Below, piece after piece: positions 7,871 to 61,497 of a stretch of 64,000 bases of DNA. The notes beneath the pieces were generated by a model. It ran no database searches and was not told the DNA's origin. It saw only the letters and a program-made list of their open reading frames with translations. This DNA is from Selaginella moellendorffii (lineage: Eukaryota; Plantae; Lycopodiophyta), in the NCBI RefSeq assembly GCF_000143415.4, contig NW_003314268.1:1658672-1722671 (forward strand), in the 5' to 3' direction. The position numbers were made by a program, and so were the translations under genes. Within the stretch, counting starts at the first letter, position 1; every line of letters begins with the position of its first letter.

Positions 7871-9333
7871 CCCTTTTTCAAATGGCCAAGTATATGGTAC
7901 ATGTTCTGGTTTTTGGATAATCTATGCTACAACAGATTATGTGTCCAGAACTTCTGTTGAACAAACCACATAAATTGGTCACAATGCTGTAGAGGATGAC
8001 TATATTGTCATCATCCCCCAAAAAAGGTGCTAGAGTGCATAGACTTTCTATGGTAATTTATTTACCACATAATTTTCCTCCAATTTAAGCAAGACACTTG
8101 ATTGCAAATCTTACTTTAGGTTGATATATAGCCTATTCAATCTTATGGATTTTTTATTTTTTGACTTGGAAACACCTAAGCTCTTGGTTGCTCAAAAGCA
8201 TTGATCCTCCTCATTCTTTAATAACATAGTCATACTTGAGAGAATGTGAATTTGTTAGCTGTATCAGCTCATTTTCTTGTCACTTCCTTTTGACAATTTC
8301 AAAGTTCTCAATTGGTTTTATTGTAGATTGAATTCCAAGACCATCGAAACTTGAGCCCATCACCTCTATGAGCTTGTGACTAAGAATTTGTATTAATATT
8401 GTAGCAGATAAGCGTGCCATTAAATCTTCAAGATTTGGTTCATTTCCTATAATCTAGGCTTTTATATAAGCATGCATAAAAGTTTGTTGTAGAATAGAAA
8501 TGACCAAGTCATTCTAGCAAGCTTCAGATAGAGGTACACATTTAGAGCCACTTGTTTTTGCTATCCATATTGCATAATAACTCTTGGTAAAATTTGTTGT
8601 TGGAATTTGGGTAGCAATTGTTTCAAAACTCATTTACAATAGAAAAGCTCTATTTCGTTAAAGTGGGATTTATTCAGTAAAATGGGACTAGGTACAAATT
8701 TTCAAGTATTTGAAAATGACGTGAAATTATATGTTTTTTGTCCAGGGGCTAGACATATCTGGGGCATGGTGACTAGCGCGGTGACTTTGTGTCCAGACTG
8801 AGTCCATCTGGTTGTATAATAAATCTCATTGTCAAGGTGAACAAGCCGAATCTGAAGCTAAAGAAGAGCGATGGCATGCGTGCACACACTATTTGTTTGT
8901 TCATTGAGCGTGTGGTGAGCTTTCCAAGATGAACGTCATTCCTATTAGCCAGACATATAACTTAATGGTGAGAACATTTAGATATTATTCAATGTTATCT
9001 TTTTCTAACGAATCTAATTGTGAAGGTGTAGCAAGAGGCATTGCTAGTCTGGAGAAGTCATTTAACTCATTTGACCCTTAGTGTATTTTCATGAAACTAA
9101 ATAACATTCATATTATTAAGGAATTTCTCTAGTACCTTTTTTTTACGACATAGAGGCTTGCATTTCTTTCAAAGGTGATTTAGTAAAAGGCCTGAGGGCA
9201 CATGCCATTCTATTTCTCAGACCGGTATTAAGATATACTAGTGCAAAGGGCCACATGCCATCACGCCTCCTCTGATTCAGATTCGGATTGTTCACCTTGA
9301 AATAAAATACATTAGAAACTTAGTAAAGGAATA

Positions 9334-12300
9334 TTAATGAATCTCACCTTGAACCCGGGTTATGAATGCTCTTGCTGCATCTCTTGCATGGTCTGGCAAG
9401 GTGATGGTGGCACTCTGCTTCCGCATCCAACCATGCACAACATTATCCACCGATATGCTCATGCTGGGATCCCTTGGATTCAGCACCCATCTCTTTTCTA
9501 GGCAATCCTTCGTATATCCGGAACTTGGCTTGAACCACTCCACAGTTACATTGAAGGAGTTAGTTTCCGCGTCCTCCTCTGCATCAGTGATGCAGCGCCC
9601 CACCCATATCATTTGTTTTTTATTACTGGGTCTGACAAGCACGACCATTCCTTTGCAGACCTGTACTGGATTGAATGCTGAATCCGGCTTCTTGTTCCTC
9701 GGCCCACAATAGTGATCCTTAACATCGTTATCTGTCACTGCATTTCCAGAGGACATTGTTCCGCTACTATCTGGTGCTTTGGGTTCTGGCCAAAAGGACT
9801 CTTCCAATTCTTCATATACAACCGGCCCATTTTGGATAGCAGATATAATCTTCTCCCAGTATTCGAGCAAAGGCTTGCACCTCTTAAAATAGGATTCTCC
9901 ACCAAACACCAACCCCCTCTTCCAGAAGGCAATATGCTGTCTAATCCAGGCCACTATACTTTCCTGGTCTTTGAGTCCATCTGGGTGCATCGGCCATGGG
10001 GAACCCTGAGGAATCATAGGTTCCCCAGTTATGGGATCTCTCTTGAAGAGTTCAATGCCGTCCACTGGCAGCCACACTGTGTCCCATTCTCTCATCTTGT
10101 ACCTCATCACTGGAGCACCGTCACGCATGCTGAAATGAAACTGAAGAGGCTTGGAGTGGCCAATCAGCGTTTCGGATCCATCCCTGATGTAGCCTCTTAC
10201 AAACCCCTTAAAGTCTGGAACCTCTGTCACAAGTGCAGCTTCAACAGTGCCTTTGATGCAATTTTGGAATTCATCGTAGAGTTGTGGGAGGGTGAGGACA
10301 TTGGATCGCCGGAGGGACTCTGCCAAGTGACTGAACATGGCATCGACGTCTTCATGAGTGTGCCCAACCATGAGAAAGCCAAGTGTAACCGTTTCAAATA
10401 TGCCTTTGGCAACAAGCATCGCCAAGTACGTGAAGACGTACATGTTTTTGTTCTCACTGCCAGCATTGTCTGTTTGGAGCAGAAGATGGGGTGGAAGGCC
10501 ACATCGGCCGCAAGAACTTCCTTGAGATTCTGCTTCGTTTGGATGAGGCTGTGCATTCACCGGGCGACTAGCCTCGTCGGAATGGCATGATTATTCAGGC
10601 CATGAATCTGACGGCCAACATATTCACTGGGATGGCATGGGGCCCCACGCGATACTGCAAGCCTTTGCTCCTCCTCCAGCTGAACCCTGTATGGGGTTCG
10701 ATCGACAAGGGCCTTATGCAAGGGTTGGCCGTTCAGCTCAGTCTGCACACTTTGCAGAGACCTTAAGTGTTTTGCTAGGGACACAATCATCATGTTTGCA
10801 CCCCCGCCACCCCATAGAGGTACAAAGAAGTTCCCATAGTTCTGGGCACCATGCCCATGAGCGATTATGCCAAACAGAGACACAGGCAGCTGCATGGATG
10901 AAGAGATTGCCTTGGGGGCAGGATTGAGTCGAGGTAAGCACGTCTTTTTCTGGTCCATTTTGTCGTGGATGATGCAGAGGTAAGAGTCAGGTCTCTCCAT
11001 GGAGAGAATCCTGTTATGATAATATGCAGTCCTGCAGCTTCTCTGCTCGATGTTGTGGTCGAGCCGCCTTCTAACCAACGTCTCTCGCTCTTGAGCGCTG
11101 CAAGAATTCTTCGACAAAGCCATTTTGATAGCAGTGCACTCGTCACACTTTGAAAAGCTGGAGTACTTTCCTATACTCACATCCCTGAACCTGTTGCTCC
11201 ACAATCTACTAAATCTAGATTGGCTCAGCTTCCTGTAGCCATTACTCTGGAGTTCCCGATTCACATCTTCCAATATGGCCCCCTTGGTATACATGGAAGG
11301 GAGAACTCGTTGGGTGTCTCGTGTTCCATCTTCCAAGAGGCGGGTTTTATGTGGTTGCTGCTCGCTACATGTCTCGACAAACCTCTTGAAGATTGCCTCT
11401 CCATATACAACATGACCCCTGGTTTTGTGCGTACCGTCGTTCCCATGGACTGCCTGTTGAACCCTTTGTTCCTCGAACTCAGTTTTGATTTTGTAGAATG
11501 TGGTTCGAGGGACTCCATAAATGATTCTCCATGCCTTCATGCAGACCAAACCCCTCTGGAAGACGATGCCCCCCACCTGATGTTCTGAAGCATCAACAGA
11601 TGACCGTAATGCCTCATACACAAAATTGCAAGCTGCCTTCCAGGACAATGTCTTGTATCTTGCTCTCTCCTCTTCAATAGCATCCCAATCAGCATGTTGA
11701 CAGCACCTCCTCTTGCAACAAGCAACTGTCGAGACAATACGAACCTCCATCGCCATTTTCTGCCTTTTCGGTTCGTTGCTCAGATCCCTTTGGCTGCGCT
11801 GTAGGAAGGTGTACTTTCTTTTCCCATGAAGAGATGTTCTGTCATCAGTTGTAGTGGTGTTTGATTGTGAATCCTTCACATTCTCAAACACTAAATGCCT
11901 CAATTTCCACCGCACAATGCTTCCAATAGTCAGACTGTTTTCTTCTGTGTCAACAACCTCTAAAATCGCAACTCCAATATCATCCCAGCCCAATTCTTGA
12001 TTAGCAACCGCATCTCTTGGATCGACAACTGTGGCTAAGCCCTCAGCTACCACCTCCCCCTCGGGGTTGTTTAGAAACACCTTTGCCTGAATCCATGTAG
12101 CACGGTTCTTAAGATCCATGGAGGGAACATGCGTTGCACTTGCGCTGTCCCCAACATCTGCTTTCTTCTGCAGATTTTTCAAGGCAACAACAACATTTAC
12201 CCCGACGACCATCTCTCCTCGTTCAATAGCGACCACATTCCCATCGAAGATAGTCTCTACTGATACAGCAGCATTGCCTTCCCCAAGCCTTTGACAGTGT

Positions 12301-12395
12301 ATAACAAAGCTCCGATCCATAGACACAAGGGTCCCTTTTGCAACTCTCTTCCCACCATTCAAAATGTAAACCTTTTCCCCAACCCTGAAGGCCAT
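9334..12395 (-). CDS. DDE transposase (~1020 aa), frameshifted near 10590 in this copy
   Basis: Two N-terminal VAxG..L..VxV repeats resembling the En/Spm-associated domain, Cys motifs (CCKRRCC, FSKCDEC), HDKMDQKKTCLP, LLQTDNAGSENKN, FLMVGHTHEDVDAMFS, and a C-terminal beta-barrel-like region. Copy 2 reads through the junction in frame. Confidence 0.85.
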
Positions 12396-12583
12396 TCTGA
12401 AAGTGCAGAAAAGAAGTTAAGACCATACAAAAAATGATTGGAGAATGGCCTAAATCATAACATACCAAACAACCTCAATAGCATGAGGCCACATGCCATT
12501 ATTCAAACATGCTATTGACACCCACGTGAAATTTCGCATTCACAAAATTGGCATGAGCCCTCATGCCATTAGTGGTACCACTA

Positions 12584-12776
12584 ATGGCATGAGGCCTCAC
12601 GCTATCTTTGGCCCCTGCTAGCCTGTTGCTATATTCCTTTTGCCTTGTTGCAACTGTATATATTTTTGTGTGCGTGACTAGTCACCCATACGAGAAATAT
12701 ATACAGTTGCAGCAAGGCAAAAGGAATATGGCAATAGGCTAGCAAGGGCCAAAGATGGCATGAGGCCTCATGCCAT
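12584..12776. repeat. ~190-bp foldback upstream of the transposase ATG
   Basis: Arms pair around GTGACTAGTCAC (~12676-12687) and each arm ends in a 22-bp palindrome. Confidence 0.9.
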
Positions 12777-13224
12777 CTTGATATACACACAGTTGCAGGC
12801 AAGTAAAAACATACATGACAATACGCTAGCCATGAAATTGCAAGGGCCCAAGATGGCATGTGGCCTCATGCCATTTGTAAATGTGGTCCTAAACCATTCC
12901 ATGGTGAACATACCAGGAAGCACAAGTGCCGAATATCAAGAGGAAGCGGTAGCCACACCAAAGACAGTGCCGCTCGCAACACCGCAACTGCTTGTAGCGC
13001 CGCTCGCACAAACTGCCACTCGCATAAACTGCCGCTCGCACAAACTACCACTCGCATAAACTGCCGCTCGCAATGGCGCTCGCAATGCCGCAACCGCTTG
13101 TAGACGCATAAACCACAGCTCACAACGCCGCTTACACAAGCAGCGCTCACTGCGCTCAGCGGAACCAAGAACACGGCGCACAAAAATGATAGACCTAGGA
13201 ATGAGTTCGAGAATTCAAAAATAA

Positions 13225-15343
13225 CACACGCTTGAACGTCACATCAAATCCTCTGACAAACCAGATCTTATGATTCCTCTGACAAATTTCAAACTGAGTA
13301 GCTTCTAGACTTTGCTGTCGGAGGTTGAACTTTGTCACATCATGTCCTTGCCTCGATCCAGCTGTGCCATGTCAGTGATTCGAACTTTGCCATGCCATGT
13401 CAGCGATCCGCGCTAAGATTATTCGCCATGTAAAGGAATAATTATGCTGTGTGTGTACGTCCATTTATGGCAATATAAGGCCACACGCCATTCAAAGAAT
13501 AATGCTAGTCGAGCATTTTTTGGTGCATTTTTGGGTTCAAAATTGCATGAGCCCACACGCTATAAAGTTTACCTGTACCAAAAATAGAAACAGCTTTATT
13601 TACTTGGGAATTTAAGTGGTTGAGGCATTTTTAAACTTACAAACACATGCCCTACTTACATTCATTTGGTTACTTAAAATTCAAAAATATTATAAACCTT
13701 TCTTTTTGCATTTTCAATGTTTTCAATTATGGTTTTTGATTTTCGCAGGACCAGCCTAGTAATCTATTTGCATCCCATCATATTTATAGCTAGCTTTCGT
13801 TTGTCCCCTTCGCTAGCCTGAGATACATCTGCTCGGCATCTGCCTCTTACAGCATTTGCCCAGAAAGGGCATCTTTCTTCACGCAGCATTTGCCACATGT
13901 TTAGGGTTAGGGTTTAGGGTTTAGGGTTTAGCAATTCAGTAGCTTGATAAACATGCAAATACAGAACTTGATGCAAAATCCTTTGATATGTCACAATGCC
14001 CCTAGGACCATAAACACATTTCAATAGAGAGGGTCCTTTCATTTCATAACTCATTACGTAGATCTTGGTGAAACCAGAGTTAGTGAAGTTGGTTTCTTGT
14101 GATCCCGCATCTGATTGTGATGTCCCTTTGCAGTGTCGATGGAAAGGTCAATGCACACCAAACTGTAGAATCTTGGAGCAAAATAACGGTCGGATCTATG
14201 GCAAATGCCCCTGAAACATTGTAAGGCTCGTGTGGTCTCATGTGGTGTCCGATCGAGATGCTTCTTTGCAGGGTCATCAAGAAGGACATTGTATACCATT
14301 CTGTAAAATCTAGTTGCGATCTAACGGTTGGATCTCCAGGAAACTCAAAACAATCTCGCGCGTGTCAGAATATTCTAGGAATATACTCCTATGTGGCATG
14401 CGGCCCCACGCCATTCAAGAGATAATGCCATATGACGCCGAGCATTTTTTGGTGCATTTTTTGGGATCAAAATTGCATGAGCCCACACGCTTGAATGTCA
14501 CATCAAATCCTCTGACAAATTTCAAACTGAGTAGCTTCTAGACTTTGCTGTCGGACGTTGAACTTTGTCACATCATGTCCTTGCCTCGATCCAGCTGTGC
14601 CATGTCAGTGATTCGAACTTTGCCATGCCATGTCAGCGATCCGCGCCAAGATTATTCGCTGTGTAACTGCTCGGCATCTGCCTCTTGCAGCATTTGCCCA
14701 GAAAGGGCATCTTTCTTCACGCAGCATTTGCCACATGTTTAGGGTTTAGGGTTTAGCAATTCAGTAGCTTGATAAACATGCAAATACAGAACTTGATGCA
14801 AAATCCTTTGATATGTCACAATGCCCCTAGGACCATAAACACATTTCAATAGAGAGGGTCCTTTCATTTCATAACTCCTTACGTAGATCTTGGTGAAACC
14901 AGAGTTAGTGAAGTTGGTTTCTTGTGATCCTGCATCTGATTGTGATGTCCCTTTGCAGTGTCGATGGAAAGGTCAATGCACACCAAACTGTAGAATCTTG
15001 GAGCAAAATAACGGTCGGATCTATGGCAAATGCCTCTGAAACATTGTAAGGCTCGTGTGGTCTCATGTGGTGTCCGATCGAGATGCTTCTTTGCAGGGTC
15101 ATCAAGAAGGACATTGTATACCATTCTGTAAAATCTAGTTGCGATCTAACGGTTGGATCTCTAGGAAACTCAAAACAATCTCGCGCGTGTCAGAATATTC
15201 TAGGAATATACTCCTATGTGCTCCTGAAAATGGCATGCGGCCCCACGCCATTCAAGAGATAACGCCAGATGACGCCGAGCATTTTTTGGGATCAAAATTG
15301 CATGAGCCCACACGCTTGAACGTCACATCAAATCCTCTGACAA
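13225..15343. repeat. Imperfect tandem duplication (~825-bp period) in the intergenic centre of the transposon
   Basis: cacacgcttgaaYgtcacatcaaatcctctgacaa at ~13225, ~14484 and ~15309. The near-identical short ORFs 14054-14299 and 14879-15124 are 825 bp apart. Confidence 0.9.
13900..13931 (+). repeat. Interstitial telomeric repeat (TTTAGGG)n; shorter copy at 14738-14756
   Basis: tttagggttagggtttagggtttagggtttag read directly. Confidence 0.9.
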
Positions 15344-15975
15344 TTTATTTAGCTCAACATCTGGCATTTTTGGAAATACAAGATGCTTTGGAATATCCAA
15401 TCATGCATAGTATAAATATAGCGAGGGTATTAAATGATATCCCAATCATGATCTTTCTTTTGGATTTCGCGTGCATGCAGTCCGAGGAATGATGACGTTG
15501 CGGATTTCTTTTGGATTTCACGCATGCGCGCGCCGATCCAGAAATTAATGGTGGCGCCCAAGTCCGAGGAATGATGACGTGGCGGGATTACCAACCGTCG
15601 TGACATTTCGCGCGTGTGAGGTTAGGTTTTGCATTTTGCTTCGTACTCGCGCTCGCACACTCGCGCTCCCACTCGCGCTCCCACTTCTCTACAGGTTTCT
15701 CGTGTGCATTGGCGTCCACTCGTGCTTGCATCACACTCGCGCTCGCATCGCGCTCGTGTGCATCGGCGTCCATTTCAAGACACACCCAGTTTGTAACTTC
15801 GCCGCCAACTCCGTCGCCCACTCCGCCACCCACACGCAGCCCACTTGGCGTCCCGGGAGATTTCAGCGCCACTCTCCAACTGTAAGTGGCAGAGTAGCCT
15901 TGCTGCTACGATCCGCTGCACACACAGTGCACATTCGCCAGCGAGTCCGGTTGTCACGCCTCCATTCGGCTTCAA

Positions 15976-18900
15976 ATGGTAAGTCTTTTAGGCCAAGTAG
16001 AAAATGGCATGAGGCCACATGCCATTCAGTAGCAACATTGGCATGCACCGATTGGGCTCTCGAGTGCAGTCCGGTTACAGATGGCGTGTAGCCTCACGCC
16101 ATCTTAGGATGCAGCCTCAAGACATCTGATGCAGTGGTGAATGGCGTGTGGCCTCACGTTATTTCCAGCTACTAGCTTTTCATCTGTCAGCTCTAATTGT
16201 TGTGCATTTCTGAACAGGCGAGGAATTGCGTTCTTCTTCCAGCCACTGTCAATGTGGATGCAGAGAAGGGGGAGGAGCTCACCAGTTGGACTTTCGGGAT
16301 GGAAGGTGAGGATCTGAGGCTGTACAACACAGATGGTGGGAGAAAAGAATGCATGGGGATCCTCATCCAAGTGACAGACACTCCATGCAGTTCCATGCAA
16401 GAATATGGACTGGCACTTGTGGTAGAGACAGCGTCTGCCTTCAAGATCCACCTTGCACATCCTAGCGGCTTCCCGGAGGGGGGCAGCGGCTATGAGGAAT
16501 TCCTAGAGGGAGCTAGGGAGAGGTTGTCCAGGAGGCCCACAATTTCAAAGACGCTGCGGGTCTATGAAGATCACATGGAATCCACGGACCTCACCTACGG
16601 CGATGTTCAAAAACTATATTCCAACATTGAGCCGTTGAGAGTGACTCCAGTTCGCGAAGCAAAGGGGAAGGGGGTCGATCTGGAAACTACCTCGAAGCAG
16701 AAAAGGGTGGTCAAGCTCAAGCCAACGTCCGACTCTCCTGCTCCAAAAAAGAAGCTACTCAGTGATGCCATTGCCTCGGGTTCGAACACTACACCCACCA
16801 AAAAGAAGAGCCGCAAAGAGCAGAAAGAGCAAGAAGAGGCAGCAAAAATCGTCGCAGATAATAGTACTTGTTACTATTCCAACAAAGTATATACAATCAA
16901 CGTGAGCCGTATCGACATCCAAAGCAAATACAACCAAAGGCTAGTATCTGATGAGTGGGTGGAGAAATTGAAGCAGAAGATGCTGACAAGTCCAGTAACA
17001 CCCGACATCGCAGACGTGATCCCCTACTACCAAAAAATGAAGGGCGAGATGAGGTTTCCAGACTTGATCAATAGGAAGGTGTTGGACGATCAGAACATCC
17101 GGTTCTATGCCGTCTCCAGGCAGCATTCTAGCTTGGCGATGCAAGAGATAGTTGTGGATATTATGGTGGGCGAGGAGGTGAAGAAAGTCTTCAAGACAAG
17201 AGTTGTCCGCCTGATAAAAGGCAACTCGCCCCTCCGATCTATCATATACATCTCCCACGCGCAGAATGTCAAGCAAGAAACGTGCTACAAATCGGGTCTG
17301 CACGAGACATTGGCACGAACATGGAAGCTCTGGGTTCAACTGAAGAAGCCACAAAAACCAGGACAAGGACGTGCACTAGCAACTAGCGCCTGGCAGGTAA
17401 GCCTCGTTGTATGTGGCATAGCATGTGGCCTCACGCCATTTCCATTGCAGGAATTCTCGAGTCTTCTCTCGAAAACACTGGGGGTCAATGACACACTCAG
17501 CATCCATAACATTCTACTCGCGACAAAAGTTGTTTTTGACAAATGGGTAGATGTGCTGAGGAGGTACCATGACGGGGAGTTGCCAAACTCAATGGGTGTG
17601 GAGGACGGCCGGAAGCCCAATGATTTGAAGCTCAACGCCTTGCGTTTCTCGCGGTCTCTAGACGACGACGACCTTCTGACAGTGGCTAATGCTCTTCTAC
17701 GTGGTGAGGTAGTCTTCAACAAGACCAAAATGACTCCCGGCCATATTGTGACATACGAGGACTTGTGCACGACTCTGAGAGCTCGTGCGCTATTGAAGGA
17801 TTGGATCTTCGAGCAAGTGGCCGTGGAGAGGGTGAGCATCGACACCACGCAAGAGATGATGGAAGCGCTGGAGTTGTCAAATGAAGACATTGACGAGTAC
17901 GTGAAGGGGGCCCCCAAGTTCATCGATCTGCTGCGGGATGCCACGAAAAGTAAAGCTGAGAAGTTGGATCAGTATCCAAATTTCATTAAGATTGATGTCG
18001 ACCGCCGGCTTCAGAAACAGCTCGACCCCGCAGCAGAGGCCTATCAAGAACCTTACCGGGTATACTTGAATTCGGATGAGGATCAAAGGTGGAGGAGCAT
18101 CGTTTCCCGCGGAGATGAGCAGGTCAAGAACATCTTTTGTGTGATGGACTTCACAAACGAGGAGATCACTCATGCAGACGAAGTCAGCTCCATCATTGAT
18201 TTAATGGTGGGACTTGCGGAGGTGGAATCTTCAGTCCACTATATGATCTACGACTCCGAATCCTATCACAAGTTCTGGAAGGCCTTGAACGAGGTGAAGG
18301 CTCGGTTGAAAGGAAAGGAGATGCGGGAGATCCATGGGATAATGGCTAAGAAGAAGATACCGAGGAATGTCCGCATCTTCACACTCGCCCTTGTTATTGG
18401 TCCTGCAGCAGAGTGGGACTGGAGTGACTTCCCAGCTTCGTTCGACAAGGCCAATCGAATTGATCTGAGGGAGGTCAATTTACCCGTGCCTGAGGAACTG
18501 AAGACGGCTATGGAGCTTTCGAATCCAAAGAAAGCTCCAGGTGCAGCATGGGAAATGCTCAGCTGGGTCTTCAACGCAATAGCGGGTGGGTCACCTGCTT
18601 CCGACTCCAAGGGCAAATGCGTTGTTGAGTACAACTGCGGCGGACTATTCTTTCGAGCCGCACTACTCAAGGGTGTCCCGTGTGTTGCGGTGACAAACTC
18701 CATTGAAGAGGTGACTTCAATGGAGCATATAATTACAGTTGCCAAAGAAAAACAGTATCTTCTCTGCGAACTTGGTGAGTACGCACTTTAAGTTTAAATG
18801 TTATCTCACAAGCTCTGTATGCAGGAGCGTGGCCACCCCCAGATGCTGAAACGGCGTTAACAGCTACTGTTGAAGATACCCATGTTGGGCCGAGCTCACA

Positions 18901-21598
18901 ACCTGCACAAGGTAAGGTCACGTGAGGCCTCACGCCATTTTGATTATAGATCGTTGTGAATATTCAGACACGAGGACTGAAAAGCGCACTGGTGGCGCAT
19001 CGAAGAAGGACAAACAAACAAGCAATAGGAAAAAAGGAGGTACAAATTATATTTGCAATGGCGTGTGGTCTCATGCCATTCCTTGCAGGAGAAACTTCTT
19101 CAAAGGCAAAACAGGCAAGCACCAGCCAAGCTCAAACTGACAGTGGTCATAAAAAGCGAAAGCACGTTGGACAGTCGTCGAGATCAGAGGCGTTTGATTC
19201 GAAAAGGAAGAAGGGCAACGAAAAGATGATAGGTAATGCCTCGCGGTTATGGCGTGTGTGCTCATGCCATTCATTGCAGATCAAGGGCTGAGTGAAAGCA
19301 GGCAGTCACCACCTCATGACTCAGATTCCTATGGCGGACTCCCCTTCCCCAATCTCAATGGAGAGGTACAATGGATGAGGGAAGCTTTTCAAGTCAGGGC
19401 CACGTTTTTCTCATCTCGTCGTCTTCGAAGGGTGCAAGAACGTGCAGAAACCATGTTAAGACAGTCGGGTGAGGATACGGTCCTAGGTCACGCACTAAAA
19501 CAGGCTATGGATGTCTTGTATTTTGAGATGGAGACTCGGCCAGATGATTTTCCCAAGATGGTCCTGGAAGAACAAGCCATCCAGCCTGAGCAGCCTATGG
19601 AAGAAATGCATGAGGGGGATGAGGAGCCAGAGAAAGATAATGAGCAGGAAGAGCAGAAGGACGAAGAGGAGGACAAAGAAGAGGAGGACGAAGAAGAGGA
19701 GGACGAAGAGGACTTGGATGGTCCTCACAATGGTGACGATCACAATAACGACGACGACGATGATGACGACGATGGCCAGCCTGAGGTGGCCAAAGAGCAG
19801 CGGAGGAAGGTCATACAAGACAAACCATCAGGTAAATAATAATACATCCATTCCTAACCTTTTACCATTTCTAACATTGTCCATGTAGGTCGCAGAGCAA
19901 ATGGTAAGTAGAGATTATTCAGTTGAATTTACAAACTCTAGCCTTTAGTGTCGAGGAAGGATAGTGCCAAGCAAGGGTCGAAACGTATGTCCAATCCTTC
20001 AGAATCAGCAGTGCGCCCAAGTGATATCGGTCCTAGTTCCTCAATAGCAGTTGATGGTAAATACAGTATAGTCGATTCAATGTGCTAATGAGTTTGTTTT
20101 TAGTAGCACGGGAGGATACCATCTCAATCGAAGGGAGATATTTGGACATGCATATGGATCCGCCAGTGGACTCTACTTGGCTGCAAGAGTCATCAGAGCT
20201 GGTGGAGGCTACTATCCATATCAACGCCAAGCAAGCTGACCACGCTCCACTTGATGCTGCCCATACCACTAAGTCAATCTTGTCCACGTATCCAACTGAC
20301 GGTGACCAGGCGCCATTGGACCCACATGAGGCCGCCCCAGCCGCCGAGCCGGTCGTATCCTCATTTCCAACGGACTCAACGTGTGCCCAATCGTCTGACT
20401 ACGCGCCGTTGGAACCTCCCTACACCGCCCCTGCTGCCTGTTCGGTCATGTCCACTTTGCCAACGGAGGCACCAGCTGAAATGGCGTGTGATCACACGCC
20501 ATCGGAACCACCCCATGCCACTGTTGAGCCAGTTGTACCAGAGTCTACAGCTGAAATGGCATGTGCCCACACGCCATCGGATGCGATTGACCCCACATTG
20601 CAGAGGAGAGTATTTCCGCCCTTCACGTTTCCTCGACCAAAACCCTCTCAACGACCATCGGGAGCAACATTCGCTAATATTGTAGATGGTAAAATTGACT
20701 TGTACCATTTTTTATGCTGACGCATTTCATTTCAGAGTCACGGCGAAGGTACTGTATTGTTTTTGATCTGAACGGTGTCCTTTTCTCCCATGAGCGTGGC
20801 TCGTCCTCGAATGTCATTGCACCCTCCAAAGCCTGCGGTCGTAAGTTGGTCAAAAGAGACAGATTCACATTAATCACACAGGAGAAACTGCGGGATCTAA
20901 TAATGACCATGCGACACTTAAAACAGAGGGCCGGGTTCAATTTGCAATTGAGAGTTTGGACATCCATGATGCGCCACAATGCATTAACGTTGCTACAGAT
21001 GATGCACGATCAGACGCGAGTAATATTACCATTTGACTTTCTCCTAACGCAGGAGGATTGCTTGACTATGGTCCATGTGAGGGGTAGCAAGCCCATCTTC
21101 GTCAAGCCAGAGGCTGTAGTGATGAACCGGACTGCTAGCTCAAGTGAAATCCTCATCATCGATGACTCGCCGATTAAAACTGCAGCAAACACGCACACAT
21201 ATGCAGTGCACCCCATCTCTTGCAGTATGGAAACTAGGGAGAAGAAACCGTATGTTCTGGGGGACCTTGCAAAACGGCTTGGAGCGATGGTGATAGAGAA
21301 TCGGCCAGTCCAGGAGGTGGCTGCAGAAATCAACCAAATGGCAGATGGAACGGTATATCAAAAGCCATTTGATCGGACAGACACCAGTCATAATTTATGG
21401 CATGTATATTGTCTAGCCAAGCACTATCCGCATCTCCATAATCTGCTCAACCGGATGGGTTCTTCGACCACTGAACATGAGCGTGGACGTATTAGAGAAG
21501 AGATGGCATTACTATTGGGTTTAAATCCTGATAGTGTGGAGAGTGATGAAATTCCAAGATTATTGTATAGGCGTTGGAGGCAAAAAATAACAGTCTGA
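15976..21598 (+). CDS. Transposon ORF2, ~1643 aa in 11 exons: ParB/Srx-like + degenerate amino-MTase fold + acidic IDR + FCP1/SCP-like HAD phosphatase
   Basis: Exons 15976-15978, 16218-17396, 17451-18774, 18825-18911, 18968-19039, 19089-19232, 19280-19831, 19889-19903, 19949-20056, 20104-20688 and 20736-21598. All introns are GT-AG and phase-compatible, 4932 nt in total. Motifs: YNQR..FYAVS(R/G)QHS; KCVVEYNCGG..AALLKG..CVAV; IVFDLNGVL..VWTS..IIDDSPIK. The first exon is the least certain. Confidence 0.75.
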
Positions 21599-22559
21599 GA
21601 TGGCATGTATTTATTTAAAAATGTAACTTATTATGGCATGGGGTTCCATGCCATTGTATTAATATTAAAAGACAATTCTTTGAGAGGATTTGCATTATAC
21701 TAGAAGTGTTACAGCATGTTATTGGAAGTCTACGAAGTTGTTTTATTAATAATGGGAAAGTAAAGATTGAATGGGGACTTGGGCTCCACCTAGACTCGGA
21801 GCAACTGAGCCAATATTAAAAGGATGGAAAGAAATTGGACGACGATGACAAGGAGAAGAGAGAGGTGAAGCAGTGGCAGGGGGAGGAGAAGTGATTGAGT
21901 AGACATTTCCTTGTTTAAAATAAAATGGCATGTGCCTCAATGCAGTTGAATTTTGTTATATTTATATACTATATAAAGGTTTGGAAACCTTATTTTACAA
22001 GTGGGATAATGACAATTCCCACTTTAACGAAATAGAGCTTAGAAAGAGTATTAATAAAAATGATTAATACTAATATTTTCTCATTTGAGAAATAATTAAA
22101 GTCCACTAATGTGGAAAATGAATAAACCATTATACTAGCCAAGTCTATAGTCTTGGAATTACTTTCTCATAAATATTATCTCCAGCCCAGAATAAATGTA
22201 TGAACTTGTATTATTTTTTTGCATCTTCTAAAGTGTTTACAACTTTTAAACTCTAGCATAACTATTTATGCTTATCATAGTATTCAACTTGAATGCATTT
22301 TTCCATGTGTTCATATAAACTTTGCTCCTAATTGAAAAGGCAACTCCTCTCTCAACCAACTAAAGCCTTGTCTAGACCACCATTGTAGATAGTTTTAATA
22401 ACTTGTCAATTTACTTGTGCTTCATCACTCATAAAACTATAAAACATTAGTAGTGTTGAAGATCCTATTCTAATTTGGTATGTTTTATTTAATAATGTCT
22501 AAAAAAGAACTTGAGTTGGCGTGTCTTCTCCTTTCATCTCACAAACAACTATCACCATC

Positions 22560-23705: not shown

Positions 23706-23743
<38 letters not shown>

Positions 23744-28780: not shown

Positions 28781-29020
28781 TCAGTTTTCTAAATCTTCTC
28801 GACTTAAATGCCGAGGTAAACTTCCTGAATTTTGTGATTCATCTACGGTGTGTTGAATCAAATGTTGTTTTTCATAGATTGCAAAGTCAAGCTCTTATGT
28901 CTTGAGTCTTTTGCAGGTTTGTATTTTGTCATATAAATGCGAAGTCAAGCTCTTATGTCTTGAGTCTTCAATCGAGTGTTTGTTTCTCGATTCTTCCCGA
29001 GTTTCTTCTCGAGGTCACTT

Positions 29021-33180: not shown

Positions 33181-33980
33181 GGATGCACTAGAATTAAGAT
33201 AAACATGATTTTTCTTGTAAGATATGTCTTGATTTTCCTTCATTTTAAGTATGTCTGAAGATCCAATAACAAGTGATGTTGTGATGATGATAGTGAGATA
33301 TCAAAGGAGAGAGTTGTCATTAGAAATGGAGTTGTTGATAGAAAAAAGATCCTTATGTGCTTTCTTTGGGTTTCATTCTAATTGGATTAAAATGTTATAA
33401 AGGGCTCAAGGTACAAGGTTGCTTTATGTTATAGTGATAGAGATTTCTTTAGGTGGAAAATGTATTTTGCACCAAATCTTATTGTAAAAGCAGAGTTTCA
33501 ACTAAAGGAGTTTATATAATGCAGCAACTTGGAGTAGAAAGCTCTATTTCGTTAAAGTGGGAATTGTCATTATCCCACTTGTAAAATAAGGTTTCCAAAC
33601 CTTTATATAGTATATAAATATAACAAAATTCAACTGCATTGAGGCACATGCCATTTTATTTTAAACAAGGAAATATCTACTCAATCACTTCTCCTCCCAC
33701 TGCCACTGCTTCACCTCTCTCTTCTCCTTGTCATCGTCGTCCAATTTCTTTCCATCCTTTTAATATTGGCTCAGTTGCTCCGAGTCTAGGTGGAGCCCAA
33801 GTCCCCATTCAATCTTTACTTTCCCCTTATTAATAAAACAACTTCGTAGACTTCCAATAACATGCTATAACACTTCTAGTATAATGCAAATCCTCTCAAA
33901 GAATTGTCTTTTAATATTAATACAATGGCATGGAACCCCATGCCATAATAAGTTACATTTTTAAATAAATACATGCCATC

Positions 33981-36900
33981 TCAGACTGTTATTTTTTGCC
34001 TCCAACGCCTATACAATAATCTTGGAATTTCATCACTCTCCACACTATCAGGATTTAAACCCAATAGTAATGCCATCTCTTCTCTAATACGTCCACGCTC
34101 ATGTTCAGTGGCCGAAGAACCCATCCGGTTGAGCAGATTATGGAGATGCGGATAGTGCTTGGCTAGACAATATACATGCCATAAATGATGACTGGTGTCT
34201 ATCCGATCAAATGGCTTCTGATATACCGTTTCATCTGCCATTTGGTTGATTTCTGCAGCCACCTCCTGGACTGGCCGGTTCTCTATCACCATCGCTCCAA
34301 GCCGTTTTGCAAGGTCCCCCAGAACATACGGTTTCTTCTCCCTAGTTTCCATATTGCAAGAGATGGGGTGCACTGCATATGTGTGCGTGTTCGCTGCAGT
34401 TTTAATCGGCGAGTCATCGATGATGAGGATTTCACTTGACCTAGCAGTCTGGTTCATCACTACAGCCTCTGGCTTGACGAAGATGGGCTTACTACCCCTC
34501 ACATGGACCATAGTCAAGCAATCCTCCTGCGTTAGGAGAAAGTCAAATGGTAATATTACTCGCGTCTGATCGTGCATCATCTGTAGCAACGTTAATGCAT
34601 TGTGGCGCATCATAGATGTCCAAACTCCCAATTGCAAATTGAACCCGGCCCTCTGTTTTAAGTGTCGCATGGTCATTATTAGATCCCGCAGTTTCTCCAG
34701 TTTCTCACGTGTGATTAATGTGAATCTGTCTCTTTTGACCAACTTGCGACCGCAGGCTTTGGAGGGTGCAGTGACATTCGAGGACCAGCCACGCTCATGG
34801 GAGAAAAGGACACCGTTCAGATAAAAAACGATATAGTACCTTTGCCGTGACTCTGAAATGAAATGCATCAGCATAAAAAATGGTACAAGTCAATTTTACC
34901 ATCTACAATATTAGCGAATGGTGCTCCCGATGGTCGTTGAGAGGGTTTTGGTCGAGGAAACGTGAAGGGCGGAAATACTCTCCTCTGCAATGTGGGGTCA
35001 ATCGCATCCGATGGCGTGTGGGCACATGCCATTTCAGCTGTAGACTTTGGTACAACTGGCTCAACAATGGCATGGGGTGGTTCCGATGGCATGTGATCAC
35101 ACGCCATTTCAGCTGGTGCCTCCGTTGGCAAAGTGGACATGATCGAACAGGCAGCAGGGGCGGTGTAGGGAGGTTCCAACGGCGCGTAGTCAGACGATTG
35201 GGCACACGTTGAGTCTGTTGGAAATGAGGATACGACTGGCTCGGTGGCTGGGGCAGCCTCATGCAGGTCCAATGGCGCTGGGTCACCGTCAGTTGGATAC
35301 GTGGACAAGATTGACTCAATGGTATGGGCAGCATCAAGTGGAGCGTGGTCAGCTTGCTTGGCGTTGATATGGATAGTAGCCTCCACCAGCTCTGATGACT
35401 CTTGTAGGCAAGTAGAGTCCACTGGCGGATCCATATGCATATCCAAATATCTCCCTTCGATTGAGATGGTATCCTCCCGTGCTACTAAAAACAAACTCAT
35501 TAGCACATTGAATCGACTATACTGTATTTACCATCAACTGCTATTGAGGAACTAGGATCGATATCACTTGGGCGCACTGCTGATTCTGAAGGATTGGACA
35601 TACGTTTCGACCCTTGCTTGGCACTATCCTTCCTCGACACTAAAGGCTAGAGTTTGTATCTTAATTCAACTGAATAATCTCTACTTACCATTTAATCTGC
35701 AACCTACATGGATAATGTTAGAAATGGTAAAAGGTTAGGAATGGATGTACTATTATTTACTTGATGGTTTGTCTTGTATGACCTTCCTCCGCTGCTCTTT
35801 GGCCACCTCAGGCTGGCCATCGTCGTCATCATCGTCGTCGTTGTTATTGTGATCGTCACCATTGTGAGGACCATCCAAGTCCTCTTCGTCCTCCTCTTCT
35901 TCGTCCTCCTCTTCTTTGTCCTCCTCTTCGTCCTTCTGCTCTTCCTGCTCATTATCTTTCTCTGGCTCCTCATCCCCCTCCTGCATTTCTTCCATAGGCT
36001 GCTTAGGCTGGATGGCTTGTTCTTCCAGGACCATCTTGGGAAAATCATCTGGCCGAGTCTCCATCTCAAAATACAAGACATCCATAGCCTGTTTTAGTGC
36101 GTGACCTAGGACCGTATCCTCACCCGACTGTCTTAATATGGTTTCTGCACGTTCTTGCACCCTTCAAAGACGACGAGATGAGAAAAACGTGGCCCTGACT
36201 TGAAAAACATCCATCATCCATTGTACCTCTCCATTGAGATTGGGGAAGGGGAGTCCGCCATAGGAATCTAAGTTAGGAGGTGGTGACTGGCTGCTTTCAC
36301 TCAGCCCTTGATTTGCAATGAATGGCATGAGCACACACGCCATAACCACGAGGCATTACCTATCATCTTTTCGTTGCCCTTCTTCCTTTTCAAATCAAAC
36401 GCCTCTGATCTCGACGACTGTCCAACGTGCTTTTGCTTTTTATGACCACTGTCAGTTTGAGCTTGGCTGGTGCTTGCCTGTTTTGCCTTTGAAGAAGTGT
36501 CTCCTGCAAGGAATGGCATGAGACCACACGCCATTGCAAATATAATTTGTACCTCCTTTTTTCCTATTGCTTGTCTGTTTGTCCTTCTTCGACGCACCAC
36601 CAGTGTGCTTTTTAGTCCTCGTGTCTGAATATTCACAACGATCTATAATCAAAATGGCGTGAGGCCTCATGACTTTACCTTGTGCAGGTTGTGAGCTCGG
36701 CCCAACATGGGTATCTTCAACAGTAGCTGTTAACGCCGTTTCAGCATCTGGGGGTGGCCACGCTCCTGCATACATAGCTTGTGAGATAACATTTAAACTT
36801 AAAGTGCGTACTCACTAGGTTCGCAGAGAAGATACTGTTTTTCTTTGGCAACTGTAATTATATGCTCCATTGAAGTCACCTCTTCAATGGAGTTTGTCAC

Positions 36901-39598
36901 CGCAACACACGGGACACCCTTGAGTAGTGCGGCTCGAAAGAATAGTCCGCCGCAGTTGTACTCGACAACACATTTGCCCTTGGAGTCACCCGCTATTGCG
37001 TTGAAGACCCAGCTGAGCATTTCCCATGCTGCACCTGGAGCTTTCTTTGGATTCGAAAGCTCCATAGCCGTCTTCAGTTCCTCAGGCACGGGTAAATTGA
37101 CCTCCCTCAGATCAATTCGATCGGCCTTGTCGAACGAAGCTGGGAAGTCACTCCAGTCCCACTCTGCTGCAGGACTAATAACAAGGGCGAGTGTGAAGAT
37201 GCAGACATTCGTCGGTATCTTCTTCTTAGCCATTATCCCATGGATCTCCCGCATCTCTTTGCCTTTCAACTGAGCCTTCACCTCGTTCAAGGCCTTCTAG
37301 AACTTGTGATAGGATTCGGAGTCGTAGATCATATAGTGGACTGAAGATTCCACCTCCGCAAGTCCCACCATTAAGTCAATGATGGAGCTGACTTCGTCTG
37401 CATGAGTGATCTCCTCGTTTGTGAAGTCCATCACACAAAAGATGTTCTTGACCTGCTCATCTCCGCGGGAAATGATGCTCCTCCACCTTTGATCCTCATC
37501 CGAATTCACGTATACCCGGTAAGGTTCTCGATAGGCCTCTGCTGTGGGGTCGAGCTATTTCTGAAGCCGGCGGTCGACATCCCTCTTAATGAAATTTGGA
37601 TACTGATCCAACTTCTCAACTTTACTTTTCGTGGCATCCCACAGCAGATCAATGAACTTGGGGGCCCCCTTCATGTACTCGTCGATGTCTTCATTTGACA
37701 ACTCCAGCTCTTCCATCATCTCTTGCGTGGTGTCGATGCTCACCCTCTCCACGGCCACTTGCTCGAAGATCCAATCCTTCAATAGTGCACGAGCTCTCAG
37801 AGTCGTGCACAAGTCCTCGTATGTCACAATATGGCCAGGAGTCATTTTGGTCTAGTTGAAGACTACCTACCACGTAGAAGAGCATTAGCCACTGTCAGAA
37901 GGTCGTCGTCGTCTAGAGACCGCGAGAAACGCAAGGTGTTGAGCTTCAAATCATTGGGCTTCCGGCCGTCCTCCACACCCATTGAGTTTAGCAACTCCCC
38001 GTCATGGTACCTCCTCAGCACATCTACCCATTTGTCAAAAACAACTTTTGTCGCGAGTAGAATGTTATGGATGCTGAGTGTGTCATTGACCCCCAGTGTT
38101 TTCGAGAGAAGACTCGAGAATTTCTGCAATGGAAATTGCGTGAGGCCACATGCTATGCCACATGCAACGAGGCTTACCTGCCAGGCGCTAGTTGCTAGTG
38201 CACGTCCTTGTCCTGGTTTTTGTGGCTTCTTTAGTTGAACCCAGAGCTTCCGTGTTCGTGCCAATGTCTCGTGCAGACCCGATTTGTAGCACGTTTCTTG
38301 CTTGACATTCTGCGCGTGGGAGATGTATATGATAGATCGGAGGGGCGAGTTGCCTTTTATCAGGCGGACAACTCTTGTCTTGAAGACTTTCTTCACCTCC
38401 TCGCCCACCATAATATCCACAACTATCTCTTGCATCGCCAAGCTAGAATGCTGCCCGGAGACGGCATAGAACCGGATGTTCTGATCGTCCAACACCTTCC
38501 TATTGATCAAGTCTGGAAACCTCGTCTCGCCCTTCATTGTTCGGTAGTAGGGGATCACGTCTGCGATGTCGGGTGTTACTAGACTTGCCAGCATCTTCTG
38601 CTTCAGTTTCTCCACCCACTCATCAGATACTAGCCTGTGGTTGTATTTGCTTTGGATGTCGATACAGCTTACGTCGATTGTATATACTTTGTTGGAATAG
38701 TAATAAGTACTATTATCTGCGACGATTTTTGCTGCCTCTTCTTGCTCTTTCTGCTCTTTGCGGCTCTTCTTTTTGGTGGGTGTAGTGTTCGAACCCGAGG
38801 CAATGGCATCACCGAGCAGCTTCTTTTTTGGAGCAGGAGAGTCGGACGTCGGCTTGAGCTTGACCACCCTTTTCTGCTTCGGGGTAGTTTCCAGATCGAC
38901 CCCCTTCCCCTTCGCTTCGCGAACTGGAGGCACTCTCAACGGTTCAATGTTGGAATATAGTTTTTGAATATCGCCGTAGGTGAGGTCCATGGATTCCATG
39001 TGATCTTCATAGACCGGCAGCGTCTTTGAAATTGTGGGCCTCCTGGACAACCTCTCCCTAGCTCCCTCTAGGAATTCCTCATAGCCGCTGCCCCCCTCCG
39101 GGAAGCCGCTAGGATGTGCAAGGTGGATCTTGAAGGCGGACGCTGTCTCTACCACAAGTGCCAGTCCATATTCTTGCATGGAACTGCATGGAGTGTTTGT
39201 CACTTGGATGAGGATCCCCATGCATTCTTTTCTCCCACCATCTGTGTTGTACAGCCTCAGATCCTCGCCTTCCATCCCAAAAGTCGAACTGGTGAGCTCC
39301 TCCCCCTTCTCTGCATCCACATTGACAGTGGCTGGAAGAAGAACACAATTCCTCGCCTGTTCAGAAATGCACAACAATTAGAGCTGACAGATGAAAAGCT
39401 AGCAGCTGGAAATAACATGAGGCCACACGCCATTCACCACTGCATCAGATGTCTTGAGGCTGCATCCTAAGATGGCGTGAGGCTACACACCATCTGTAAC
39501 CAGATTGCACTCGAGAGCCCAATCGGTGCATGCCAATGTTGCTACTGAATGGCATGTGGCCTCATGCCACTTTCTACTTGGCCTAAAAGACTTACCAT
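33981..39598 (-). pseudogene. ORF2 of copy 2 (ParB-like/MTase-like/FCP1-like), inactivated
   Basis: Collinear with 15976-21598. Frameshift at ~37865, stops at 37555 and 37297, DLNG>YLNG. Retains VSGQHS. Confidence 0.85.
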
Positions 39599-40157
39599 TT
39601 GAAGCCGAATGGAGGCATGACAATCGAGGCCGGACTCGCTGGCGAATGTGCACTGTGTGTGCAGCGGATCGTAGCAGCAAGGCTACTCTGCCACTTACAG
39701 TTGGAGAGTGGCGCTGAAATCTCCTGGGACACCAAGTGGGCTGCGTGTGGGTGGCGGAGTGGGCGGTGGAGTTGGCGGCGAAGTTACAAACTGGGTGTGT
39801 CTTGAAGTGGACGCCGATGCACATGAGCGCGATGCGAGCGCGAGTGTGATGCAAGCGCGAGTGGACACCGATGCACACGAGAAATCTGTAGAGAAGGTAG
39901 ATGAGCGCGAATGTGAGCGTGATCGCGATGCGAGCGCGAGTACGATGCAAAACCTAACCTCACACGCGCGAAATGTCACGACGGTTGGTAATCCCGCAAC
40001 GTCATCATTCCTCGGACTTGGGCGCCACTATTAATTTCTGGATTGTTGCGCGCATGCATGCACGTGAAATCCAAAAGAAATCCGCAACGTCATCATTCCT
40101 CAGACTACATGCACGTGAAATCCAAAAGAAAGATCATGATTGGGATATCATTTAATA

Positions 40158-42481
40158 TGCCGAGCAGTTACTCGGGAACTACTTCCCTAACCTTGATAGC
40201 CTTGCCTCATGGCAAGCTTCAAGACCACGCTTCTGCTGTGCCACTTTGATTTCGCGCGTTCCATGAACCATTTACACTTGGCCTTTCTAGGTACTAAGCT
40301 ACTTAGAATCGTCTTTGGGAACCTTGAAGGAACTCTGTCCCTCAGCTTGCTAAGGCCTCCCTTTTTGCAAGCCCTCCAAATGCCACATAGTCTAACATGG
40401 ACAATTCCATATTTTAGACTCTCCATGGCATCACGGTTGCTAGTGGCAACACCCTCGAGCCCCCACTTGATTCTCCACTCCCAGCTGGCATAACCAACCT
40501 TGGTTATGCCCTTTGATTCCTACGGTTCGGTTCTATCCCCTTACTTCTTGCTTTTTGGCTTCACACCTTTCCTTTGGTCATTCTCCTCCAGACCAGGAGG
40601 ATAGCTTTGCACTTTCTATCATGCTTTAGCAAGTATTCTTAGGGATGAACCTACCCAATAGCCTAGGGAGTGGTTCCTCAATCCGGGTATGCTCACCTTA
40701 TAATCCCACACACTGGGATTACATTGTTGCTTATGGGCCTTTACATGCCCATCACTAGCCTTGCCAAAATTCCATTTTTGGCTTTGTCCAACTTGGGTAG
40801 ACAGTCCTCTCCTGTCTCCGCAACCTTGGACATTTGGATAGCACCTTCTATCCATCATTCGCTAGGGACTTAGTCCCTTGGGCTTTATCCATTGCCCTCG
40901 CGACATCAAACACCACCTTCTGGTGTTCTAGAGTGTTCGGGTGTCCCAATGATGGCTTTCTTGACAATGAGTATTTCCTTTTATGACATTGACTTACTAT
41001 ATCGCAACACAAGCAACTTATCCCCTGTAAGGGTATATCCAACTTCCCTATGCTATTAAGAAGTCTTGGGTAGCTACCTTCTACCCGTTTAACCAGTTAT
41101 TTTGCACCTCTTGCTTAGTTGCCTCATAGTTGTCAAGTCCTACAACTCATTGCTTGGTGCTTTCACACCTCCATCATTATCTGGGTCACCACACTCCAAC
41201 TGCATGCTCTGCAGCTTAGGCTATGCTATTCCCATTTCCATTGGGATTCCTTTGGCAAGGGGTTCTCATGAACCCACCAACATAGCCTCAAGGTATCACA
41301 CCTTGGCACATTTGGTGTCTCCACACCATCGGCTCCACGAGCCTACCTCTATGACATTTCCCCTTCGTGTCTAAGTCTTTGCCAAGACCAACACCGCTCT
41401 TTCTCATGCCAACCATCCGTTAGCACTGCCCCATAGAGGTCACACACAACTTTATGTCAAAGTTGTTTTCTTCTGGGAACACCTTTCCCATAACTTTAGC
41501 ATGGCACATTTTGCCATCGATGAGATACCCTCTGTTCTCATCCTTGGATCCTATGATCCCCCCCCCATCCTTTGTGGGGTACAACACACCTCAGTCCAAA
41601 TGCTTCCATCAGTCCTTTTAGGACCATCCCTTGACTCTACTTGAGTCATCCAACAGTTTTGGACTTGGTTAATCCACAGACCCGTAAGGTCCTACTTGTG
41701 AGGCACTAGCTCACTGGAATACACTTCTTGCATTCCTGTCCTACTCAAAAGGACTATTTTCACAAGTGTTACTCCAACACTTGATTTTTTTCTCTGGGGG
41801 TAACTTTTGCCCCTTAGGACTACTTGTCCATGCGATGAGAATACCACTCATCTCTAAGTACACCCCCCAACTCCTTGGGTTGTTCCAGCATTTATTAAAG
41901 GTAGCCTCGACTACCATTTCAAGGACTTGAGTCCTCTTCCGTATTTGACCTTCCACGGTCATTACCTTTGGTCTCACATTCATGAGCACCAACCTCAACT
42001 ATATGAGGATAATCTTGTGACTCCTTTATTATTTTGGAGTCTCTATCTTTCCCGTGATCCCAACTTTAGTTGTTTACCACAACAACCTTAGCCAATTTGC
42101 TGAGACAAATGCTCATCCGGATCACATCCTCAACTCAATGAGGAAAACCTTGCACTGTTCCCAAGATCCCAAAGTCGTTCCATTATTGGCCCTTTTCTAT
42201 CCACCACCTCGTCTACAAGTTCACACATGAACTGTAATGGAGAGCCATGTCTTCCCGACTTGCTACTCCTCAAGGATAGGCCCACTCCTCGGGCCTTCCG
42301 ATGCCAACACTAGTGGTGATATACTTGAGCACCAATAAAAGTCGGACTAAGGAACAGCTCCGATACCAAATTGTAAGCGACTAATTTTTCCATTCTACTT
42401 CAGTCACTTAACCACACCTCCGACCACTTGGAGGAGTCTCATTCACAACACTCGGTATGGGTACCTCTACCCCCCTTCTTC
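40158..42481 (-). mobile_element. Family A retroelement fragment (5' LTR end, Met PBS, non-coding internal region) inside transposon copy 2
   Basis: Minus-strand TGGTATCGGAGC at 42368-42357 next to the LTR end at 42372; 40165-40605 is homologous to 49960-50385. Confidence 0.8.
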
Positions 42482-43284: not shown

Positions 43285-43299
43285 TGAAGAAAAGTTAAC

Positions 43300-53337: not shown

Positions 53338-53339
53338 GT

Positions 53340-61460: not shown

Positions 61461-61497
61461 CCACAGTTTCTCGATTTCGTCCTGAATTTTCTCTCAG

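Follow-up and report, generated by a model that had tools for sequence, protein, structure and literature searches.

A 22-bp palindrome is repeated through a 13.4-kb Sola-type DNA transposon of the lycophyte Selaginella moellendorffii, and these palindromes may well be, at what we judge an even chance, the target sites of a dimeric, ParB-like accessory protein predicted from the element's own sequence, serving self-recognition, spreading and anti-silencing. Two copies of the element lie in the window analysed here, the whole of a 64-kb stretch (64,000 nucleotides) of contig NW_003314268.1 (assembly GCF_000143415.4, positions 1,658,672 to 1,722,671). Matches to the palindrome with at most two mismatches number 30 in the window and 0 in every one of 100 dinucleotide shuffles; 17 are in copy 1 (8645-22040), 13 in copy 2 (33539-46825) and none in the rest. 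Four are exact (12755, 12853, 15230 and 16004). A position weight matrix (PWM), which was trained on the 17 close copy-1 sites and is therefore circular for copy-1 counts, assigns 26 sites to copy 1 and 17 to copy 2, with three weak ones (5-6 mismatches) in the remaining 40.5 kb. Moreover, when 5-mer dyads are counted de novo, ATGGC-N12-GCCAT comes out on top in copy 1 (11) and in copy 2 (6), the shuffle maximum being 2 (copy 1). A preliminary description of this stretch had reported the repeated palindrome and had seen no full copy outside the two elements; both statements hold within the window, and all 12 of its copy-2 positions are right, the one at 46262 with three mismatches.

8645..22040: copy 1, Sola-type DNA transposon of 13.4 kb with terminal inverted repeats (TIRs) and the target-site duplication (TSD) AGAA on both sides
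8645..8668, forward strand: left TIR, 24 bp, a perfect match with the right TIR
22017..22040, reverse strand: right TIR, 24 bp
33539..46825, reverse strand: copy 2, inverted, 96.6-99% identical to copy 1, TSD TAGA, 17 PWM sites
9334..12395, reverse strand: transposase gene, DUF7869 (Pfam E 8e-40, alignment with 17 relatives)
16299..21598, forward strand: predicted accessory gene, 10 exons, 1614 amino acids (aa), head to head with the transposase gene

The palindromes are clustered and unevenly spaced, neighbours in copy 1 being 36 to 1846 bp apart. The earlier figure of one per 500 bp is right as a mean of the 26 PWM sites (515 bp) and fails for the 17 close sites (788 bp) and as an even spacing. 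Coding DNA holds 4 of the 26 sites though it makes up 57% of the element (p=1e-5), the four being confined to a variable transposase linker and a low-complexity 75-bp repeat. Within the accessory gene four of six sites are intronic, introns accounting for 5% of positions (p=1e-4), and four of the nine predicted introns carry one palindrome each.

8871..9261: palindromes 8871, 9187 and 9240, from the left end to the transposase stop, 3-4 mismatches
10582..10653: palindromes 10582 (rearranged in copy 1) and 10632, both within the transposase frame, in its variable linker
12478..16162: 13 palindromes between the head-to-head genes, at 12478, 12548, 12584, 12755, 12853, 13542, 14393, 14472, 15230, 15297, 16004, 16081 and 16141
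17397..17450, forward strand: predicted 54-nt intron with palindrome 17418
18912..19279, forward strand: three predicted phase-1 introns (18912-18967, 19040-19088, 19233-19279) with palindromes 18917, 19058 and 19249
20481..20577: palindromes 20481 and 20556 in the 75-bp repeat, low-complexity predicted exon
21633..21946: palindrome 21633 and half-degenerate site 21925, beyond the accessory gene

An intron at the linker site 10632 was considered and dropped, copy 2 reading through in frame. The three palindrome introns 17397-17450, 19040-19088 and 19233-19279 are alike at their edges (GTAA..GCCTCG, TTGCAG), with flank scores near the 99% null level; one might have been copied from another.

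The intronic sites raise the question of RNA or single-strand hairpins, which could for example act when the 47-56 nt introns are spliced. The palindrome ends 9-10 nt ahead of the AG at three intronic sites, its CTCAY resembles a branch point, and folding is better than in shuffles for two of the four introns that carry a palindrome (z -2.5, -1.7). The remaining two, however, fold no better (z 0.1, -0.2), the arms do not covary, the sense strand shows A-C mismatches in both copies, five of the nine introns have no site, and most sites lie outside the introns of the accessory gene. An obligatory hairpin was rejected on the lack of covariation and of better folding in two introns, and a hairpin role in general appears very improbable.

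The base profile fits a protein site. Among the 20 best sites, which were chosen by likeness to the pattern so that conservation is inflated, all 40 half-sites have C5, T7 and G8, G stands at position 10 in 38 and at position 11 in 30, and no more than background information is left 2 bp beyond the palindrome edges, i.e. outside 22-24 bp. The view that the outer arms are conserved and the centre varies is thus borne out as graded conservation, the centre being far from free. The purine/pyrimidine (R/Y) positions of these sites pair as A/C 7, A/T 6, G/C 4, G/T 2 and other 1. They combine as if independent, so base pairing is not being kept. Graded conservation, independent arms, the lack of TSDs and confinement to the element within the window suit the dimeric-protein site proposed earlier. 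Over 52 half-sites positions 5-6 read CA 30, CG 19, CC 2 and TG 1; the suggested toggling between CG and TG/CA therefore stands for CA and CG, whereas TG is found once. Decay of methylated CG would yield CA and TG equally, yet the ratio is 30 to 1 (p=3e-8), and C5 consequently looks constrained. We infer that the protein would read C5 and accept C, 5-methylcytosine (5mC) or T opposite position 6. Just one of the two deamination products appears to be kept, in keeping with a site that would tolerate T or 5mC on the other strand.

The protein in question could come from the host. Transposons often bear host factor sites, and the palindromes might be captured sites through which a host transcription factor switches the element on in a particular tissue. 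With its 22 bp and about 16 constrained bases, though, the site is long by the standards of plant factors, and no close site occurs in 40.5 kb of other repeats and gene fragments; the palindromes of related elements (below) are moreover unrelated to this one. We give this explanation little credence.

Concerning the origin of the copies, 12 of the 26 copy-1 sites share flanks with another site, in five groups, and local duplication thus accounts for part of the copy number; about 19 contexts are unrelated, so that the earlier statement that most copies are not products of tandem duplication is upheld in part. The palindromes might then be a neutral by-product, left by a tiny mobile unit, by intron-forming insertions or by old local duplications. 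In keeping with this, a rearrangement falls exactly on site 10582, and divergence between the copies is no lower in the sites (13/347) than elsewhere (231/9651), 7 of the 13 differences being that single event. Against it, TSDs are not in excess at the palindromes (mean 2.85 vs 2.72, 95% bound 3.15), information is at background outside the 22-24 bp, and CA:TG of 30:1 points to constraint. The first intron (17397-17450) spans 18 codons that are absent in spliced relatives, and L013, a 2-kb accessory-gene fragment of a plant relative, has an intron at the same codon without the 22-bp palindrome; the intron is therefore older than its palindrome. A neutral origin is accordingly hard to credit. 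A miniature inverted-repeat element or other tiny mobile unit with its own TSDs, an alternative named in the preliminary description, was rejected because of the missing TSD excess, and an introner because the intron position at 17397 is common to relatives without the motif. After the rearrangement in copy 1 (10582-10605) an 8-6-8 near-palindrome remains, its spacer being new; the other form is found in copy 2 and in public contigs. It is possible that palindromes are hotspots of repair.

The binding protein favoured here is the product of the accessory gene. Removal of nine GT-AG introns (45-57 nt) leaves 0 stops against 54 in the unspliced frame, and copy 2 retains 17 of the 18 splice dinucleotides. 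Splice joints were not found in public contigs, a result that speaks neither for nor against the introns.

16860..17330 (approximate), forward strand: ParB-like N-domain of the predicted accessory protein, followed by a helical domain
18050..18760 (approximate), forward strand: beta-class methyltransferase (MTase)-like fold, followed by a low-complexity stretch
20736..21598, forward strand: NIF/HAD-like tail, the NIF-like match being just over the cut-off

Homologues are found in Selaginella, Calypogeia and Riccia, and the Atlas clusters are from Streptophyta, in line with a land plant, probably a seed-free one, as host. Word-based searches found no homologue; a full HMMER search returned 13 matches, and P0024, P0027 and P0029 among them were discarded as repetitive chance hits. 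Beta-class DNA MTases, or a putative one, occupy 8 of the 10 best Foldseek PDB rows (best E 6e-3), the likeness falling in the C-terminal part of the long exon; this class is marked by a permuted Rossmann fold in which the SAM motif I stands near the C-terminus. The VIA comparison gives Z 5.1 to PvuII and M.BceJIV, no higher than for unrelated rows, and PF01555 stays below the cut-off (E 7e-4 in L013, 4e-3 in P0033). The beta-class catalytic motif, [DNSH]PP[YFW] by definition (PMC4738411; here and below, papers and preprints are cited for those parts of them that were accessible), is absent from all 11 accessory proteins or regions examined, some of them partial. An active methylase was therefore rejected, and the sequences suggest that the methylase-like domain is inactive. 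Atlas neighbours of the accessory protein are phage ParB_N and N6_N4_Mtase proteins (0.77-0.79), and those of a homologue's N-domain are DUF3723 (0.95-0.96) and ParB_N (0.90); these Atlas features, a single source that offers leads, together with motif order weakly suggest a ParB-like N-domain. No useful matches came from searching PDB, PHROGs, NCBIfam and phage genomes with profiles, a DGQHR model had 0 matches in five genomes, and a single-sequence fold reached a predicted local distance difference test (pLDDT) of 33. No ParA-like or P-loop family was found among the six element open reading frames (ORFs) scanned, short ORFs being outside the scan. The tail carries DLNG in place of the DxD of active enzymes. 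Four annotated Selaginella genes of about 450 aa (P0022, P0035-P0037) match the helical and MTase-like part.

Related elements have palindromes of their own. Twelve loci with a related transposase comprise ten contigs of 1.5-6.4 kb and two 20-kb stretches, L006 and L010, from intron-bearing eukaryotic contigs filed in bacterial metagenome-assembled genomes; of the twelve, these two are of sufficient length to show whole elements. In both long loci an accessory-gene homologue with an MTase motif-I-like exon stands head to head with the transposase gene. Alignment to these homologues by hhalign gives P=73%, E=3e-5 for the N-domain and P=58%, E=1e-4 for the helical domain, with P of at most 0.6% in 15 column shuffles each. 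L006 has a dyad family of 30 copies of TTGAAATTTCAA, and L010 has ACTCA-N4-TGAGT 15 times and a satellite dyad 21 times, the shuffle maximum being 2 in either case. Both L006 arrays sit in predicted introns of the accessory and transposase genes; the TTGAAATTTCAA 12-mer occurs 72 times in the L006 assembly vs 2 for a control pattern, and L034, a diverged paralogue (37-67% aa), has five copies in the same intron at a different spacing. The Selaginella motif itself was not found in loci L001-L013 (closest: 5 mismatches) or in viral contigs. Among the elements compared the motif is family-specific, with different palindromes in relatives, and lies mostly in the element's non-coding DNA, a feature in common with VANDAL and its protein VANC. 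L001, a complete compact element of 3.7 kb with a 17-bp TIR, has neither an accessory hit nor a dyad family. No dyad family was found in the partial loci L004 and L009; L012 has four copies in a short tandem repeat. A TIR was not identified for L006 or L010. The contigs of these two loci (733 and 589 kb) contain spliceosomal-type introns and eukaryotic transposons and represent eukaryotic contamination of GTDB genomes; L006 also has Helitron-like Rep and helicase frames at 14690-18738, recognised by eye.

The transposase could be the binding protein too, the sites serving as subterminal repeats or in self-activation and the accessory gene being a passenger. Transposases are able to bind and activate their own elements (bioRxiv 10.64898/2026.08.24.746577), ten sites lie inside or within about 500 bp of the transposase frame, and the L010 arrays lie just outside its two genes. 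The motif is unlike the 24-bp TIR, however, 15 of the 26 copy-1 palindromes lie more than 3 kb from either element end, unlike subterminal repeats, and L001 belongs to the same transposase family yet has no dyad family. We regard this explanation as unlikely. Alternatively, the accessory protein might bind the sites for a purpose other than anti-silencing, to repress or tune the two divergent genes, or to pair the ends by bridging or sliding, as ParB condenses DNA. Half of the copy-1 sites (13/26) lie between the head-to-head genes, and the accessory gene is present in long elements and not in the 3.7-kb L001. C/T differences between the two copies amount to 10.4% in CG, 6.5% in CHG and 1.6% in CHH (context read from copy 1); being concentrated in CG and CHG, they imply that both copies were methylated after insertion, which also speaks for such a role. 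Promoter control, on the other hand, needs no sites in distal introns or coding linkers, and the role as a whole seems to us quite improbable.

If, as we favour, the palindromes are sites for self-recognition by the accessory protein, it would bind as a dimer, each subunit reading ATGGCRTGWG, and would load at the sites and then spread, as ParB does on parS. Sites scattered in introns and linkers would let spreading cover the whole 13 kb. Since it is without the catalytic motif, the MTase-like domain would bind or shield DNA and not methylate it. The element would in this way be protected from CG/CHG silencing by the host, as VANDAL is by VANC; with C5 fixed and A or G at position 6, the half-site would still be bound when methylated or after decay to one of the two products. 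The element would hereby recognise copies of its own family. A more far-reaching proposal, which we hold to be doubtful, is that a lineage of Sola-type elements, spanning land plants and unrelated eukaryotes, co-opted a bacterial module of the ParB-parS type for self-recognition. In such a system a CTP-gated clamp with a dead MTase domain would start from family-specific palindromes in introns and linkers, slide over the element and shield it from silencing, protein and site diverging together.

Several results weigh against self-recognition by a ParB-like protein. The N-domain has no ParB hit in Pfam, NCBIfam, PHROG or PDB sequences, hhalign of the N-domain against bacterial ParB gives P 0.7% with 1 of 40 shuffles higher, and the best such alignment remains weak (P 3.8%, E 0.011, 0 of 12 shuffles higher). 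The structure model of the N-domain is mostly below pLDDT 50, and no Foldseek PDB hit of the accessory protein reaches E 0.001. As to the relatives, the palindromes of L006 and L010 form tandem arrays, those of L010 near the element ends, as expected of transposase sites. Of three further TTGAAATTTCAA clusters fetched, one is that in the L034 intron and two (L033, L035) have no detected element gene. L013 has no repeated dyad in its two introns, and L023, with two decayed fragments of N-domain and transposase, has no dyad family of more than three copies within 20 kb. The co-occurrence of gene and palindromes is based on three elements with the gene and one complete element without it, kinship being ignored. 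Furthermore, the CG/CHG differences between the window copies suggest that any protection from silencing was not lasting. The L033 (9489-10070) and L035 (2669-3222) clusters are 28-bp tandem arrays of the L006 palindrome; they are possibly non-autonomous derivatives of the system or riders on it.

Classification of the host element is based on its ends and its transposase. Sola DNA transposons have a 4-bp TSD and TIRs of 11-1124 bp with variable termini (PMC10741241), and 4-bp TSDs (AGAA, TAGA) and 24-bp TIRs are present here. In public contigs the flank of another element copy starts at 8645, and the family is high-copy in public DNA runs. The transposase has the acidic motifs HDKMD (10967), QTDNAG (10476) and GHTHED (10365), and HDKMD, DN..NKN and GHTHED are conserved in relatives. 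The link of these DUF7869 motifs to Sola DDD transposases, like the Sola subgroup, is presumptive. A definition of the Sola motif was not found in the accessible parts of PMC5751038, PMC10294476, PMC12973397 and bioRxiv 2021.09.26.461848. Relatives of the transposase were not found in viral contigs, nor, with a single-protein query, in metagenomes. Its frame is shifted in copy 1 at the rearranged palindrome near 10590 and is continuous there in copy 2. Copy 2 has two changes in the TIR at one of its ends, stops or a frameshift in both genes, and an interior (about 40158-43300) replaced by other repeats and an N gap. Between the two genes of copy 1, the segment 13275-15346 shows internal duplications of about 160 and 700 bp and plant telomere-type TTTAGGG runs at 13899 and about 14740. 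Elsewhere in the window, 6355-7870, 22560-32163 and 49148-53340 hold several related repeats resembling long terminal repeats, which contain 12-bp tandem arrays and, at 26400-28780, a gag frame, and fragments of CYP450 (1315-1884), integrase (2840-4167) and MutS (60745-61674) genes are present.

In two algal papers of 2025, accessory proteins with ParB are proposed as the means by which transposons bind and modify their own DNA, and one of the papers alone points to repeats. Such proteins thus have precedents in brown and red algae, self-recognition there being a proposal. In this study, we supply a defined 22-bp site profiled at each position, the complete protein as predicted, and relatives that have other sites, which makes the idea testable by binding and specificity swaps, and we extend the system to land plants, where VANDAL has been named as the sole transposon known to bind and modify itself (bioRxiv 10.1101/2025.02.11.637652). 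A full-text literature search for ParB and transposon found no land-plant element of such kind and no dispersed palindromic site; most subscription journals and Repbase reports were outside this search, and the Bostrychia supplements of the red algal work may describe repeats further. If ParB-like sliding works on chromatin, an epigenetic state could be spread under sequence guidance in a new way, and the system would make a compact targeting tool.

Among known systems, bacterial ParB-parS likewise has several palindromic sites in cis, there joined with a ParB domain that the accessory N-domain may resemble; ParB binds as a sequence-specific dimer and slides as a CTP-dependent clamp. The differences are a 22-bp site here against the 16 bp of parS, a eukaryotic intron-bearing gene, weak homology, and no ParA-like gene among the six ORFs scanned. 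Phage loci have ParB adjacent to or fused with an N6A/N4C methylase (PMC4738411). In Arabidopsis, VANC is encoded by VANDAL and binds family-specific motifs in introns, intergenic and terminal non-coding DNA (PMC5735166). Family-specific motifs in non-coding DNA, multiplied by local duplication, are common to both systems, and the VANC effect spreads over the element; VANC is also marked by inducing a loss of methylation. VANC, however, belongs to a Mutator host, unlike the present element with its 4-bp TSD and DUF7869 transposase; its motifs are non-palindromic and 8-9 bp long, no ParB or MTase fold is reported for it in the text available, and its function is proven by experiment, whereas ours is read from sequence. 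In the red alga Bostrychia, the Plavaka PAG2/PAG3 cassette joins an accessory protein with a ParB-like N-domain to inverted-repeat arrays proposed as its sites (bioRxiv 10.1101/2025.02.11.637652). There the host is EnSpm/Plavaka, ParB is fused to a 2-oxoglutarate (2OG) oxygenase with the methylase in a separate gene, and the repeats stand next to PAG3 in tandem arrays; the Selaginella palindromes, by contrast, occur singly, dispersed over introns, linkers and spacers. A further likeness is seen in Sola1-1_Ec32 of the brown alga Ectocarpus, whose accessory protein is suggested by its authors to bind and modify its own element (PMC12477816). This too is a giant Sola element with a 4-bp TSD often ending in A, termini starting with AA, and an accessory gene on the strand opposite to the transposase that encodes a ParB-like and an N4C/N6A MTase domain. 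It measures 21.5 kb, with a 282-bp TIR and a 1104-aa protein, and its target site is not given in the portion available. Compared by description, the Selaginella element differs from it in its land-plant host, 24-bp TIR, extra NIF-like tail, lack of the catalytic motif and explicit, dispersed 22-bp site.

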